A program made the position numbers and the translations under genes. From assembly GCA_017409025.1 (NCBI GenBank), contig JAFQTN010000002.1:112185-176184 (forward strand): DNA of 64,000 nucleotides, in the 5' to 3' direction. The notes below the pieces were generated by a model. That model was not told where the DNA came from. It ran no database searches and saw only the letters and a list, made by a program, of their open reading frames with translations. Below, one piece after another: positions 15,535-29,658 of the stretch (position 1 is its first letter; the number at the start of each line of letters is the position of its first letter). Origin of the DNA: Bacilli bacterium. GTDB lineage: Bacteria; Bacillota_I; Bacilli_A; RF39; UBA660.

Positions 15535-15566
15535 TTAAAAAGCCAACACATAAATTATGTATCAGC
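15535..15566 (-). terminator. Intrinsic terminator closing the T7SS-linked gene string
   Basis: Minus strand GCUGAUACAU-AAUUU-AUGUGUUGGC (10 bp, 3 G-U pairs) followed by UUUUU. Lies 46 nt past the stop at 15612. Confidence 0.5.
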
Positions 15567-15611
15567 TTATTAAACGTATTCTATTAATATTAACAATTAA
15601 ATAAAATCAAA

Positions 15612-16004
15612 TCATCTATGAATGCCAGTACGATTCTTGTCTTGACTAACATTTAATTTTTTTTTATCCACCTCATATATCAAATATTTACTGTTAATAT
15701 TAGTTACTAAAGAAAATGAATAAGATAACGTTTCTTGGTTAACAAAATCAACCGAAAATTCAAAATATGGATTTTCTGAAGCATCGTAAATTTCTCGAAT
15801 TTCTTCGACTGAACTCGCTCTATAATAAGTACGATGTTCTTCAGAATCATATGAACGACATTCACACAACAACATCTTATTTCCATTTGATTCAAACTGA
15901 TTTATAAAATTAATCAAAGAATCAATCTGAACAGTATTATCAAAATAGAAAATCTTCGTATAACGTCTTTCGTCATTACTTTCTCTTGTGTTTATAACAT
16001 TCAT
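15612..16004 (-). CDS. Hypothetical 130-aa cytoplasmic protein, last gene of the T7SS-linked string
   Basis: ATGA start/stop overlap with the upstream MBL gene. No recognisable motif. Confidence 0.5.
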   Translation of the reverse strand: MNVINTRESNDERRYTKIFYFDNTVQIDSLINFINQFESNGNKMLLCECRSYDSEEHRTYYRASSVEEIREIYDASENPYFEFSVDFVNQETLSYSFSLVTNINSKYLIYEVDKKKLNVSQDKNRTGIHR

Positions 16005-16801
16005 TTACTAACGCCTCCTTTACTATTAGACAACAACTTCATATCAAGCATCAACCCTTCATTAGCAACAATTGTATTAGAAAATATAGAACAAGCTTCT
16101 TCTAAATATTCAAATTTATTATGTTCCGGCCAAAAATGAGTTAACATAAGTGTATCTACGTTAGCTAAAAGTGCAAGCCTAGCAGCTTCCTTTGCATGCA
16201 AATGATATGGATCATGAACATTATCTTTCTCCAGATAAGTAGATTCAGAAATCAACAACGATGCACAAAATGAAAATGAAATAAATTTATCAATATCGGA
16301 AAAACCCATATCCCCAGTATATACAATAGTATCACCGAAAGAAACTATCTTAGCACTAAAGTTTGCAAGAGAATGTTGAGTTTTCAAAAAATTAATACAT
16401 GTATTTTCATCAACATTTATCTTACTATGTTCATTATATGTAACTATATCGAAATATTGTTCCTTTAAATTTTTAATCATAAGATAATCCTCATATCCAT
16501 CCTCACTAGGCAAAACCTCAGGAATATATACCTTAACTTTTTCATTTAACATGCCTAATCTATGATAGCAAAATGATGCATATCCCAAAGAAAATAAATC
16601 TGCATAATGATCTTTATGTAAATGAGAAATAACAATCGTAAGATTATTTAAGTCTTCCGGCATATTTAATAACGAAGATATGCCAGGACCACAATCTAAT
16701 AAAATTTTGTTAAAACCATTTTCAAATAAATAACCAGGACAATTATTACCATTCTTACAATAAGGAGAAACACTACCTAATACTTTCAATTTACTATTCA
16801 T
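16001..16801 (-). CDS. MBL-fold metallo-hydrolase (RNase Z-like beta-lactamase fold)
   Basis: HxHxDH motif (SHLHKDHYADL) and downstream His/Asp ligands (TQHS, GDMGF, LTHF). 4-nt overlaps with both neighbouring genes. Confidence 0.8.
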   Translation of the reverse strand: MNSKLKVLGSVSPYCKNGNNCPGYLFENGFNKILLDCGPGISSLLNMPEDLNNLTIVISHLHKDHYADLFSLGYASFCYHRLGMLNEKVKVYIPEVLPSEDGYEDYLMIKNLKEQYFDIVTYNEHSKINVDENTCINFLKTQHSLANFSAKIVSFGDTIVYTGDMGFSDIDKFISFSFCASLLISESTYLEKDNVHDPYHLHAKEAARLALLANVDTLMLTHFWPEHNKFEYLEEACSIFSNTIVANEGLMLDMKLLSNSKGGVSK

Positions 16802-17232
16802 TTTTTTAACCTATACCCCTCAAAAAACTTATCAATACTTTGCTTTGATGACAAGATATTAGTCAAATATAACAAAAAGTCGCGTTCTTCCTCTATTTCA
16901 CCCATTAATACTTCTTCATAAGAACATAAAGGACTATATTCCTTTCTATAAAGAACTACATCGCCTACCTTTAATTCAAAGTATCTTTTCTCGTTTACAA
17001 TCGAATTCGAACAAGTAACATTATTCATTCTTACATCAAAAATATTATTATTTACAGATAAATATAAATTATCATTGTGACAAAATATACCTATAATTGT
17101 AGAAACATCAATTTGTTCCGCCATGCCCTGATTATATTCTCCATTATAATTATCAAACTTTAAAATTTTTACTTCTTCATTAACTAAACATATGTTAGTA
17201 TATGGATCCGAAAAATTTGCCATAACAATCAT
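16798..17232 (-). CDS. Hypothetical 144-aa protein in the immunity-gene position directly after the giant protein
   Basis: aggagg RBS overlaps the stop of the 2074-aa gene (13-nt gap). No signal peptide or TM. No recognisable motif. Confidence 0.5.
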   Translation of the reverse strand: MIVMANFSDPYTNICLVNEEVKILKFDNYNGEYNQGMAEQIDVSTIIGIFCHNDNLYLSVNNNIFDVRMNNVTCSNSIVNEKRYFELKVGDVVLYRKEYSPLCSYEEVLMGEIEEERDFLLYLTNILSSKQSIDKFFEGYRLKK

Positions 17233-17245
17233 AAACCGTTACCTC

Positions 17246-20200
17246 CTATTGTTTTAATCCTAACGCAGCATTTAATTCCGGATTAGCTTTGCTCGAACCA
17301 TTTATTATTTCCAAATATACAGTTTCCTCAGAAACATTTGGACCTAATTTATTCAATTTGTTCCTAAAACACCACTCTAAATCAGGCCCTATAGCAGATG
17401 CCAATCCTTTTTCATAACTTATCCCAACCATTTGGCTAACAATCTCTATAGCTCTATTATAAATCATTTCGTCAGTAGGGTCAACTACACCAGAATATTC
17501 AAAAGATTCTATAGCACTTCTATAAATATCATCCTTTTTAGATAAAACATTTTCTTTTGAATCTTTACCTAAAGTGCTACCATAGGTAACAACATTGCCA
17601 ATAGCAACCTTTATACGACCTGCTAATTCCATATTTGCTCTCGCTCTTACTTTATTCTGATTTCTTGTATTAACAGCATATTCGGCCATTTCCTTTACAG
17701 AATACCCTTCTGCTTTCATTTTTTTAACTTCTTCTTGAATTGCATTATCCTCTAATAAATATTTGATCCTTATTTCCCTATTCTTCATAACCTCTGCTTC
17801 ATTAGAAAAATCAAAACCAGCAAAGCGCTCATTTCCAACAATTCTATAACCAAAAACCGTATTAGAATCTTCTTGTAAAAAAGCGACAGCCGCCGGTTCA
17901 ATCTCAGATAGCCTCAAACCTTTTCCAGAAGTACCTATCCCAGTATACTCGGCATAATCTAAACCATATTTAGAATGCGTATAATTCAAATTTTTAACTC
18001 CTGTTTTGGCAGTTTCTTTTTTTTGATTTGCATCAATTAAATTTGTTGTTTCTGCTAATTTGCTTACTTCTCTAATCTCTACATCTATTCCTGCGTAATC
18101 TGCATATTGTTGATATATAGATTTTACCGTATCTGACGTTGACGTATCTAATTCTATTACTATCTTTATTGTTTTTCCATCTACGGCTTTATTTAAAAGT
18201 AAATCCCCTTTTGAAATTAATTCGCCAGCTCTTTCATCAATTGCAAATATTGTACAAAATGGTACTGCTTCCGAATTTTTTATAGATACTACAACCTCTA
18301 CATCATTCTCAGACGCAGCTTCAATCCGATATGTTTGATTATTCTCACCAAGTACAAATTGTGGTGATTTATTGGTTTTATCTCCATCTATTTCATACGT
18401 TACATTTGCAGCTTCTGCTTCTGCCAATTTCAAATAAGATAATTTCTGTGGATCATCTTTTTTCAATCCAAAACGTTCCAACATAATTGCTAATTGTTCA
18501 TTAATAGGTAATGTCGTATCTATATTATTTCTTGACATAAGTTCATTAAAACTTAATTGAACGTTATAATTTGTTGTTTTAAATGTTATTGGTTTTCCAT
18601 ATTGATTTGTTCCGGCGTTATCATTATTTGTTAATGCATCTCCAATTCTCACTATTAAAGATTCATATCCTGCTTTTGTTATCCAATCTAAATTAAAATC
18701 ATATACTTCGATTTTTCCAACTGCTTTGCCGGTGGCATTATCACCCACTTTATTAATTACATTTTGATCCTTTGATCCCTCACCAGATGGATTTGGAACA
18801 GCAAAATCTTCCAAATGTGTATCTTTCGATTTTATTACGCCATTTTTCAACAATACATCTACTATATCAAAATCACTATCTTCGGTTGCTGCTGACAACG
18901 CATGAACCGCAAAAGACCATCCCGCTTCATTGCTAGATAAAGATTTTAAACCAGAATTACTTTTCGAGTGAGCAAAAGTTAATATTGCTGCTTCGGCAAT
19001 CTCCAAATCACTATATCCAGCCTTTCTTAATATTTCAGATTCTAAGATTATATCTACACCTGAATTAAACGAATGTGATTTTCTATAAATTCCTCCGTCG
19101 GCTTTTGCATCTTCCTTAATCCATGGCTCTAATTTACCCTGTTCATTTACTACAAAATATATTTCTTTGCCTCCAGACATTCCTGTATCATGCATAACTG
19201 CAGATAACATTATTGTTTTTAAAGATAAATTATCAATACCTACATCTTTAAATGCAGCATAAGAATTTATACTTTGTGTTAACACATCCATCGCATGTAC
19301 AATGCCATGTGTTCTATATGTGTTAAAGAATCCCTTACCACTCTCAAGTTTATCCTTTAATCCATCCCTTGCTTCTTCATAGTATTTTGACATTGAATCT
19401 AAAACTTCTATGCATTCCTTGACATCAGATAATTGAATTTCTGCATTCTTGGAAGCATCTAACAAATTAATATATAATGAAGTAGCGGCCTCTTCATCCA
19501 AAACCCAAGAACTTAAATTATCTCCAACTAAATTATTAAATAATTGCTGTACTTGTCCTTTTGTTATAGTTCCATTTTTAATACCCACTTCAATCACTGC
19601 CGGATCTGTTATTTCTGATAATTTTTCAGTTTCGTTAACAAATGAATTTTCTAATACTTCAACACCAACTTCATTAAATATCGGTTCAGACACAATGCCA
19701 TTCTCATCTACAGCACTAAAACTATCAACATATTCTGGATTAATATTATATGTATTAGTATCTTGATTAAAGTATACAATACTCTCTATAGAAACACCTT
19801 TAGGAACCCTTATAATTAATGTCCCATCAATAGGATTCATACCTTGAGAAATACCAAAAGAACTTTTTAAAACATTAACAAGATCGTATAATCCATCTAC
19901 TTTATTAACAGTATTTATCAACTTTACTTGTGAAATATCAGTAGGTGTAGAACCATATCCACTAGTAGTAGTCCCAAGACATCTAACACCTTCAGACATA
20001 ATAGAACTAACATCAGAAGAATTAACTGTTTTAACGTAAATATCATATTCTCCATCTTCAAATAAACTTGAATAATAATTGCCCGCTTCTGGACTAATAT
20101 ATCCTTTATTATTTGTATTTGATAAAATTGTATCAATCTGCTGTTGTGTAAAAAAACCACTTTTTAATTTTGATTCATAAAAACTCCCCATGTCACTAAT

Positions 20201-29284: not shown

Positions 29285-29299
29285 AAAACCATTCCTTTT

Positions 29300-29545
29300 T
29301 TAAATCAAAAGTAACTTAGTACCATTTTTTATATCAGTATTCCTTACAATCTCATTATTATTGTAAACTTTTCCATTATATAAATTTAAAAATACATAAT
29401 TTTCTTTTTCGTTAAATAATGTTTGAAAATTTTTGGATAACAGGTTAGAAATATTACCAATTTTATCGTTTATAGGAACAAAAACTTCGAATTTCTTATC
29501 AAGAGAAAGAATATACAACTCAACTAACAATTTATTGTCAAACAT
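29300..29545 (-). CDS. esaB: Ubiquitin-fold YukD/EsaB-like T7SS protein
   Basis: ~80 aa with a beta-grasp-like pattern ending ...IKNGTKLLLI. Immediately upstream of essC. Confidence 0.6.
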   Translation of the reverse strand: MFDNKLLVELYILSLDKKFEVFVPINDKIGNISNLLSKNFQTLFNEKENYVFLNLYNGKVYNNNEIVRNTDIKNGTKLLLI

Positions 29546-29579
29546 AAACACACCAGTCCTATCATACTACTATAAATAA

Positions 29580-29608
29580 AGTATACAATATAAAAGATAA
29601 ATTTACAA
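29580..29608 (-). promoter_or_regulatory. Candidate sigmaA promoter of the T7SS locus
   Basis: Minus strand TTGTAA (29603..29608), 17 nt, TATACT (29580..29585). Lies just downstream of the rplL terminator. AT-rich context makes false positives likely. Confidence 0.35.
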
Positions 29609-29609
29609 T

Positions 29610-29635
29610 AAAAAAAGCCAACATTTTTTGTTGAC
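29610..29635 (-). terminator. Intrinsic terminator after rplL
   Basis: Minus strand GUCAAC-AAAAAAU-GUUGGC followed by U7, 24 nt past the rplL stop. Confidence 0.55.
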
Positions 29636-29658
29636 TCTTTCATATCTCTAAATTTAAA

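Follow-up and report, generated by a model that had tools for sequence, protein, structure and literature searches.

A putative type VII secretion and polymorphic-toxin cassette in the rplL–rpoB spacer of an uncultured gut Bacilli lineage

We analyzed a 64,000-nucleotide stretch of a metagenomic Bacilli contig (referred to as the window), in which eight co-oriented genes stand between the ribosomal protein gene rplL and the RNA polymerase gene rpoB. This 14.1-kb segment, which extends from the rplL stop codon to the −35 box of the rpoB promoter, is probably a self-contained type VII secretion system (T7SS) and polymorphic-toxin cassette that resides in a recombination hot spot. The window has a low GC content (22%–35%) and carries nearly all of its genes on the minus strand, where the order is secE, nusG, rplK, rplA, the L10 leader RNA, rplJ, rplL, the eight open reading frames (ORFs) of the island (83/81, 1526, 205, 87, 2086/2074, 144, 266, and 130 aa), rpoB, and rpoC (Table 1). 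The first member of each pair of sizes applies if translation is counted from an upstream GTG (83 aa) or an upstream TTG (2086 aa).

The borders were set by aligning the window (blastn) to L001, a relative with an empty site. Identity in the flanks is uniform at 88%–96% up to both junctions (91% at the nucleotide level in the rpoB/rpoC flank), ends at position 29655, and resumes at 15510, so that the 14.1 kb of the window stands where L001 has 109 bp. The resulting borders (about 15511–29654) match those of the initial annotation, which had described a type VII secretion locus at 15535–29658 that splits rplL from rpoB, and every feature listed there was recovered in its place on the minus strand. 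Because the source is metagenomic, and all of its relatives are metagenome-assembled genomes (MAGs) or metagenome contigs, we considered an assembly or binning artifact joining a T7SS contig to the ribosomal and rpoBC region. L002, which was assembled independently, has the same left junction and carries the cassette of the window at 100% identity over 13 kb; the right junction recurs together with the whole run from EssC to rpoB in two separate Logan assemblies (L177 and L178); and an allelic cassette, L095, likewise ends in the rpoB promoter. The recurrence of both junctions in independent assemblies rules such an artifact out for practical purposes.

A compact secretion core

The secretion core includes a 1526-aa EssC-type ATPase, which scores 1001 bits against the NCBIfam model TIGR03928 (cutoff 778.4) over residues 221–1520, matches Pfam FtsK_SpoIIIE with 156.6 bits, and carries an N-terminal FHA domain. 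Hydropathy places hydrophobic segments near residues 252 and 292 and marks EssC as the sole clearly membrane protein of the cassette. The 205-aa product of the next gene is a tandem WXG100 protein: Pfam PF06013 matches it in two stretches (38.6 bits, cutoff 27.3), and two helical-hairpin units follow each other in a single chain, with a W-K-G in the first unit. TIGR03930 aligns to residues 29–95 with 36.5 bits, under its cutoff of 44.85. Profile searches thus bear out both the assignment of the locus to type VII secretion and its tandem-WXG reading.

The 81-aa protein encoded ahead of EssC had been called YukD/EsaB-like. It has no Pfam or NCBIfam match; the YukD profile PF08817 fails for it and touches one of 23 aligned homologs (E = 0.025). 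None of the 24 homologs collected has a Pfam domain, and a search of PDB sequences with a profile of the family returned no YukD. On the other hand, its AlphaFold2 model (pLDDT 78.6) resembles ubiquitin, NEDD8, and UBX domains in a Foldseek search of the PDB (TM ∼0.65), and most of 80 related loci have a homolog of it as the immediate neighbor of EssC. The protein is YukD-like by predicted fold and synteny only; this much of the earlier name stands, whereas the profile searches that EssC and WXG100 passed offer nothing for YukD.

EssC, the ubiquitin-fold protein, and the tandem WXG100 protein would together form the export apparatus. Signatures of EssA, EssB/YukC, and EsaA/YueB were found in no island ORF by Pfam and NCBIfam scans. 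Two loci of the window type from other genomic contexts (L097 and L098) have no extra conserved neighbors either, and the accessory proteins of the related cassettes L005, L008, L091, and L094 gave no Pfam hits and contain no recognizable EssB- or EsaA-like parts.

The near-universal core of T7SSs consists of TsxA (WXG100), TsxB (ubiquitin-like), and TsxC (the ATPase); subtypes a–j have variable extra parts, and toxin genes occur at their loci alongside genes for small helical partner proteins and for immunity (Garrett, Higginson & Palmer 2024, PMC11217815). That survey drew on RefSeq and so did not cover uncultured lineages like the host of the window. The window locus matches subtypes c–j in the TsxA/B/C core, its TsxB being assigned by predicted fold and synteny, and in the toxin–partner–immunity layout, but each of these subtypes has at least one further conserved part (a kinase, phosphatase, FHA protein, EspG-like protein, β-propeller, and so on), and none was seen in the window cassette. 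With T7SSb, the Ess/Yuk system of Staphylococcus aureus and Bacillus subtilis, it has in common an FHA-bearing EssC, WXG100, a small ubiquitin-fold protein beside EssC, and a large modular substrate with co-varying small genes. It differs from T7SSb in having no EssA, EssB/YukC, or EsaA/YueB counterpart, a tandem-fused WXG100, a ubiquitin-fold protein that the YukD profile does not recognize, and a substrate without an LXG domain. Since the EssA, EssB, and EsaA features were looked for in the locus and not found, we do not file the cassette as T7SSb; it is a T7SS by its core, not a demonstrated T7SSb, though its EssC passes the T7SSb EssC model.

The giant protein and its small neighbors

The longest gene of the cassette encodes a modular 2074-aa protein, composed of a predicted all-alpha N-terminus, a conserved hydrophobic, Gly-rich module (about residues 340–725), exchangeable middle modules, and a unique C-terminal segment of ∼270 aa. 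It has no match by sequence in Pfam, NCBIfam, or the PDB; among all island proteins, NCBIfam matched just EssC, the WXG protein, and, weakly, the MBL-fold protein. Pfam searches at E values up to 10 on five segments of the protein and on four small orphans of the cassette returned nothing credible, nor did PDB sequence searches with the protein singly or as a 37-member profile, and the LXG domain (PF04740) gave no Pfam hit on residues 1–388 at E up to 10. A histidine–aspartate (HD) phosphohydrolase motif picked out by eye at about residues 1330–1480 was confirmed by no profile and is at most tentative.

Relatives were nonetheless found in metagenomes. A word-indexed search of 5.8 billion proteins recovered five homologs besides the protein itself, and an exhaustive HMMER search with residues 1–708 recovered 379 representative clusters (E up to 0.001), which align mainly to residues ∼335–700. 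The conserved module carries the motifs NFGEG, GNMxP, and GNAxNQAL, together with two borderline hydrophobic stretches (about residues 538–580 in 2086-aa numbering, or 526–568 of the 2074-aa protein). All 10 family members that we looked up were metagenomic and unnamed. Pfam domains are rare among the 37 members scanned and include an ADP-ribosyltransferase exotoxin domain in two of them and a transglutaminase core in one. The hydrophobic module had raised the idea of a phage tape-measure or plasmid protein, which we rejected because tblastn with the module returned no phage or plasmid relatives.

Pairwise alignments to six homologs (P0002–P0006 and P0031) revealed mosaic similarity. Residues 1–1081 are held in common with P0002 (79%), with divergence thereafter; residues 802–1004 with P0006; residues 994–1267 with P0003 and P0004; and residues 1266–1806 with P0002 and P0031. 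A search with the C-terminal 387 aa gave one hit, confined to the shared upstream module, and the last ∼270 aa match nothing. Homologs of the giant protein also lie downstream from EssC and small genes in L091, L094, and L096.

P0002 is encoded in L095, and because that contig ends in the rpoB promoter, it represents an allele of the cassette at the same site. At the position of the 144-aa gene of the window, L095 has an unrelated 87-aa gene. The C-terminus of P0002 matches those of P0003 and P0004, and the 87-aa gene that follows P0002 is 47% identical to the 86-aa gene that follows P0004 in L096, the two toxins sharing a C-terminal domain. Such joint exchange of a C-terminus and the gene behind it is typical of polymorphic toxin–immunity pairs. 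The 2074-aa protein thus appears to behave like a polymorphic toxin, with modular alleles (a conserved N-terminal part and variable C-termini) and a downstream gene that co-varies with the toxin domain, and the product of the 144-aa orphan gene directly behind it is the best candidate for the cognate immunity protein. The 2074-aa protein would be the exported effector, its exchangeable modules and unique C-terminus being the toxic cargo.

The resemblance to LXG toxins and their Lap partners extends to the large protein, the conserved helical N-terminus, the swappable C-terminal modules, the small upstream protein, and the co-varying downstream gene. The giant protein differs from them in having no PF04740, in its module at about residues 340–725, which has no Pfam or PDB relative, and in being far larger. 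AlphaFold2 predicted its N-terminal 708 aa (six sequences) to be all-alpha at a pLDDT of 53.7, too poor for a fold search. The data are consistent with the helical N-terminus acting as a targeting signal, perhaps with the 87-aa protein encoded just upstream. The latter, described as helical in the initial annotation, has no family match in Pfam or NCBIfam, and a 46% identical homolog lies upstream of the allelic giant gene in L095; its small size and upstream position make a Lap-like targeting partner of the giant protein possible.

Alternatively, the giant protein could be a structural or surface part of the machine, standing in for EsaA, or an adhesin, with the downstream genes as unrelated metabolic cargo. 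The two borderline hydrophobic stretches, a cassette in which EssC is otherwise the lone membrane protein, a window allele without a recognized toxin domain, and the resemblance of the 266-aa metallo-β-lactamase (MBL)-fold protein to housekeeping hydrolases would all fit. Such a part would not be expected to have hypervariable C-termini, which in this family include an ADP-ribosyltransferase toxin domain, or to swap its C-terminus with the next gene between alleles at one site as toxin–immunity pairs do, and we regard this alternative as rather improbable.

The 144-, 266-, and 130-aa genes follow one another with 4-nt overlaps and are therefore translationally coupled. The 266-aa protein matches NF041851, a model of cyclic-nucleotide-degrading phosphodiesterases, over its full length with 89 bits, far under the cutoff of 400; its other matches are RNase Z, the PDB entries 1zkp and 6kns, and, among precomputed assignments, PF23023 (the Apyc1 family). 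Such matches suggest a cyclic-nucleotide phosphodiesterase of general type only. Its gene, coupled between the candidate immunity gene and a conserved end gene, is missing from L095. One may speculate that the enzyme protects by degrading the product of the toxin. The 130-aa protein has a 41% identical homolog at the same position in L095, and its gene, being conserved at the right end of both alleles, is not allele-specific. One or more of the three coupled genes would protect the producer.

In L094, the genes behind an ADP-ribosyltransferase-bearing member of the giant family (14407–15512) encode a Ser/Thr protein kinase and, by a weak hit, a DUF4176 protein. Several of the newly described T7SS subtypes include a kinase.

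Variation in the rplL–rpoB spacer

We compared the spacer first among close relatives. Contigs with an RplL identical to that of the window are 92%–97% identical to it in rplJ–rplL DNA and 96%–98% in RpoB, and form a tight cluster of sister species. Four of them (L001/L009 and L003/L004) have rpoB 230–250 bp after rplL. Three (L005, L006, and L007) carry a second type of EssC (67%–73% identical among themselves and 42%–48% to the window EssC), with the ubiquitin-fold gene after EssC and not before it. L002 has the window cassette, L010 a third EssC N-terminal type in the gap, and L008 an unrelated 595-aa gene.

A wider comparison covered 80 species representatives, 59 of them with rplL in view. 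Their rplL–rpoB gaps range from 276 bp to ∼8.4 kb, and several of the other 21 representatives have 10 kb of unrelated genes ahead of the methyltransferase and rpoB. This methyltransferase gene (∼195 aa, small-domain, PF05175) lies just before rpoB in 50 of the 59 gaps (L015 and L018 are examples) and is missing from the species cluster of the window. Many gaps carry further unrelated cargo, for example, membrane proteins, and the closest representative (L011) has thyA–folA there (8325–10000). The initial annotation had treated the string from rplL to rpoB as inviolate, which does not hold in this order, in which the gap is usually occupied. An EssC locus occupies one of the 59 gaps, that of L046 (RpoB 74%), so the same content does not recur throughout the order. 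Given that gap content differs among the 59 representatives, and that contigs with identical RplL have rpoB directly downstream, the cassette is not ancestral to the order.

In B. subtilis, the rplKAJL–rpoBC cluster has the ybxB methyltransferase gene before rpoB, and in Mycobacterium tuberculosis many genes lie between rplL and rpoB. The PF05175 gene takes the position of ybxB in the 50 relatives, whereas the species cluster of the window has lost it and the gap serves as a cargo slot. Although such a location would stand out among Bacillota in general, genes in this spacer are common within the order, and the spacer appears to be a gene-exchange hot spot rather than the site of a one-off disruption.

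Pairs of small proteins, some with a W-x-G motif (e.g., YWNG), are encoded in the gaps of L039, L058, L046, and L030; Pfam WXG100 recognizes none of them. Those of L039 and L058 occur without any EssC and are homologous to the pair of L046. Such pairs may be solitary T7SS partner genes or vestiges of cassettes that have been lost. L104 (1–15003), from another lineage, reads methyltransferase, rpoB, rpoC, two small genes, EssC, and the ubiquitin-fold gene, which puts the T7SS locus just downstream from rpoC instead of upstream of rpoB.

We next searched metagenomes with an alignment of six EssCs and took the best 80 relatives (38%–61% identity). Almost none lies near rplL or rpoB; L104 has one downstream from rpoC. 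The nearest (L097, L098, and L107; 57%–61%) have the same order as the window (ubiquitin-fold gene, EssC, and tandem WXG), and the contexts of the nearest window-type loci are a SpoU methylase with DUF2779 and an ABC/FtsX transporter. The window EssC is nearer to these EssCs of distant contexts than to the type found at its own site in L005, L006, and L007, which suggests replacement of cassettes rather than divergence in place.

These distances bear on a different history, in which a T7SS locus was already in the gap in the ancestor of the genus or family and was inherited vertically, with fast arms-race divergence and some deletions, the window retaining the old state. EssC directly follows rplL in five of about eight lineages of the tight cluster, the distant L046 also has an EssC locus in the gap, the W-x-G proteins of L039 and L058 are homologous to the L046 pair, and the composition of the island is like that of the backbone. 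Divergence in place sits poorly with EssC types that are just 42%–48% identical over their full length at a site where RpoB is 96%–98% and rplJL DNA 92%–97% identical. It sits poorly, too, with a window-type EssC that is closer to those of unrelated contexts than to its same-site neighbors, with a gene order that differs by type (the ubiquitin-fold gene precedes EssC in one and follows it in the other), and with 58 of the 59 gaps in which no EssC is found. We hold vertical descent to be unlikely, while giving it some weight.

The preferred reading, a cassette exchanged at a hot spot, requires a route. In agreement with the initial annotation, the borders have no integrase, transposase, or tRNA: Pfam and NCBIfam scans of the island ORFs turned up no domain of an integrase, transposase, or relaxase, there is no tRNA within the window, and no long direct or inverted repeats bound the island. 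A 12-nt match common to both terminators (TGTTGGCTTTTT) was considered as an attachment-site duplication and rejected, as the terminators of other cassette types and empty sites are unrelated and no longer repeat exists. GC3 is 0.16–0.22 in seven of the eight island genes and 0.10 in the WXG gene, compared with 0.10–0.18 in the backbone, and the codon-usage distance of the island is within the backbone range; the GC and codon-usage check proposed earlier was thus carried out and gave no foreign signal. That the spacer holds different cargo in many lineages would fit a site-specific mobile element (an integrative island, transposon, or prophage remnant) targeting it. The missing recombination genes, tRNA, and repeats argue against such an element, as do the co-orientation of all genes with the flanks and a giant-protein module without phage or plasmid relatives, and we consider it very unlikely. 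Since recombinase, repeats, and tRNA are all missing and the composition resembles that of the backbone, the simplest route would be homologous recombination in the conserved flanks, by which cassettes would be gained, lost, and swapped among close species.

The transcription signals at the borders were as first described. Both terminators had been missed by a simple terminator scan and were recovered by folding against 200 shuffled sequences: the hairpin behind rplL (29600–29645) folds with a ΔG of −13 kcal/mol (z = −4.75), that at the end of the cassette (15525–15580) with −15 kcal/mol (z = −5.1), none of the 200 shuffles folded as well in either case, and a U-run follows each hairpin. A promoter scan found the rpoB promoter (TTGACA-17-TG-T-TAACAT, 15493–15465), which is conserved in relatives: the empty-site contigs L001, L003, L004, and L009 carry it and its leader in nearly identical form, as does the end of L095. 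Intergenic comparison showed a strong terminator right after rplL in every variant, filled or empty. It sits within the variable segment and differs from one cassette type, or one empty site, to the next. Filled variants have a promoter-like site directly after this terminator; that of the window may act as the cassette promoter, judging by its match to the consensus.

The insertion had been thought to have uncoupled rpoBC from rplJL read-through. This proposal is not supported, since in relatives with empty sites rplL already ends in a strong terminator and rpoB has the promoter and leader seen in the window; that rpoBC is separated from rplJL is more plausibly a trait of the lineage that predates the cassette. 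The cassette, carrying its own rplL terminator, promoter-like site, eight genes, and terminator, would slot between transcription signals that exist in relatives without it.

L007 (690–760) has the promoter-like site and leader with which the window cassette opens on the left (TTGTATACTTT..TATAGTA, 29560–29600), but in L007 the first gene is EssC and not the ubiquitin-fold gene. L005, L006, L008, and L010 have another leader in common (TTGAAA..GATATAATATA).

Table 1. Features of the cassette and its flanks (positions in the window)
Feature	Position	Strand	Basis	Remark
rpoB + rpoC	8150..15396	−	Pfam	Downstream conserved flank
rpoC	8150–11785	−	Pfam	
rpoB	11785–15396	−	Pfam	
rpoB promoter TTGACA-17-TGnTAACAT and conserved leader	15434..15493	−	Promoter scan	Right anchor of the variable gap
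Cassette terminator, hairpin + U-run	15530..15568	−	Fold	
130-aa orphan, conserved right-end gene	15612..16004	−	Homolog in L095	
266-aa MBL-fold hydrolase, Apyc1-like cyclic-nucleotide phosphodiesterase type	16001..16801	−	Pfam Lactamase_B_2	
144-aa orphan	16798..17232	−	Directly after toxin gene	
2074-aa modular protein, putative T7SS-exported polymorphic toxin	17246..23470	−	Mosaic homology, position	
87-aa protein without family match	23680..23943	−	Position just upstream of giant gene	
Tandem WXG100 protein, 205 aa	24010..24627	−	Pfam PF06013; TIGR03930	
EssC-type ATPase, 1526 aa	24704..29284	−	NCBIfam TIGR03928; Pfam FHA, FtsK_SpoIIIE; hydropathy	
Ubiquitin-fold protein (EsaB/YukD/TsxB-like), 81 aa	29300..29545	−	AlphaFold2, Foldseek, synteny	
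Candidate cassette promoter TTGTAA-17-TATACT	29580..29608	−	Promoter scan, 9/12 matches	
rplL intrinsic terminator, 13-bp hairpin + U-run	29604..29641	−	Fold and intergenic comparison	
rplL (L7/L12)	29659..30027	−	Pfam L12 N- and C-terminal domains	Left anchor of the variable gap
rplJ + L10 leader RNA	30053..30687	−	Pfam Ribosomal_L10; Rfam RF00557 (66.4 bits, gathering score 44)	Upstream conserved flank

Genomic setting and implications

The closest relatives by RpoB (71%–92% identity) are exclusively MAGs, labeled as uncultured Bacilli, Tenericutes, or Clostridia and recovered from human gut (Hadza, Nepal, and other cohorts) and from rabbit, goat, sheep, and mouse gut. Among them are Clostridium sp. 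CAG:417 and Mycoplasma sp. CAG:877, both of the GTDB order RF39. Homologs of yabP, yabQ, and divIC are present in the window (40263–41220, minus strand), which points to a walled, spore-forming organism despite the “Tenericutes” and “Mycoplasma” labels of its relatives. Their presence agrees with a published prediction of cell walls and spore formation in most RF39 species (PMC10868615). The host would thus be an uncultured, spore-forming, low-GC gut Bacilli lineage (RF39-like). Our literature search found nothing relevant on RF39 and T7SS or on rplL–rpoB islands.

Several other features of the window were noted. Just downstream from rpoC (5015–8061, minus strand) lie genes for two proteins without a Pfam match: a 515-aa coiled-coil protein with one hydrophobic segment, and a 475-aa protein with a C-terminal hydrophobic tail and a long Pro/Val/Glu-rich low-complexity region, which lifts the local GC to 0.39. 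Both are independent of the cassette, since counterparts follow rpoC in the empty-site L001. An AbiEii-type nucleotidyltransferase toxin gene and an upstream gene for a 201-aa partner without a Pfam match (3513–4945, minus strand) are likely a type IV toxin–antitoxin pair. A YoeB toxin and Phd/YefM antitoxin pair lies between parA and a GDPD-family gene (35420–35945, plus strand; precomputed Pfam assignments of the identical contig L002) and has no equivalent at the matching position of L001. A T-box leader (121 bits, 48056–48260, minus strand) precedes a 518-aa ORF (46476–48032), and a small signal recognition particle (SRP) RNA (57 bits) lies at 61565–61645 (minus strand).

Some of these results weigh against a self-contained, mobile secretion and toxin cassette. 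The cassette has no EssA, EssB, or EsaA, so parts of the apparatus may be missing or may be encoded at another place in the genome. The giant protein has no match to LXG or any other targeting domain, and the model of its N-terminus is of low confidence. The backbone-like composition adds no separate evidence of transfer. EssC occupies the site in most lineages of the tight cluster, which could reflect genus-ancestral occupancy with losses and not repeated invasion. Finally, secretion, toxicity, and immunity are all sequence-based proposals.

A more far-reaching proposal, to which we attach low confidence, is that the cassette is a streamlined, self-sufficient three-part T7SS (tandem WXG100, divergent ubiquitin-fold protein, and EssC) that moves as a unit between chromosomal sites and exports an undescribed family of giant effectors characterized by the Gly-rich module (the 379 representative clusters, all metagenomic). 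The orphan C-terminal domain of the window allele would be paired with an Apyc1-like phosphodiesterase that could degrade a nucleotide made by the toxin, not bind the toxin itself.

For the biology of these abundant uncultured gut bacteria, our analysis suggests that the spacer between two highly conserved operons is a slot for interchangeable competition cassettes. The conserved flanks are long, near-identical recombination arms, which would explain exchange across species without mobile-element machinery, and because rpoBC has its own promoter in this lineage, a cassette need not disturb expression of the polymerase. Novelty lies more in the apparently three-part system and in the large, unannotated family of putative effectors. 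This possibly minimal T7SS arrangement and these giant proteins could help in looking for secretion signals and for toxins with new activities.

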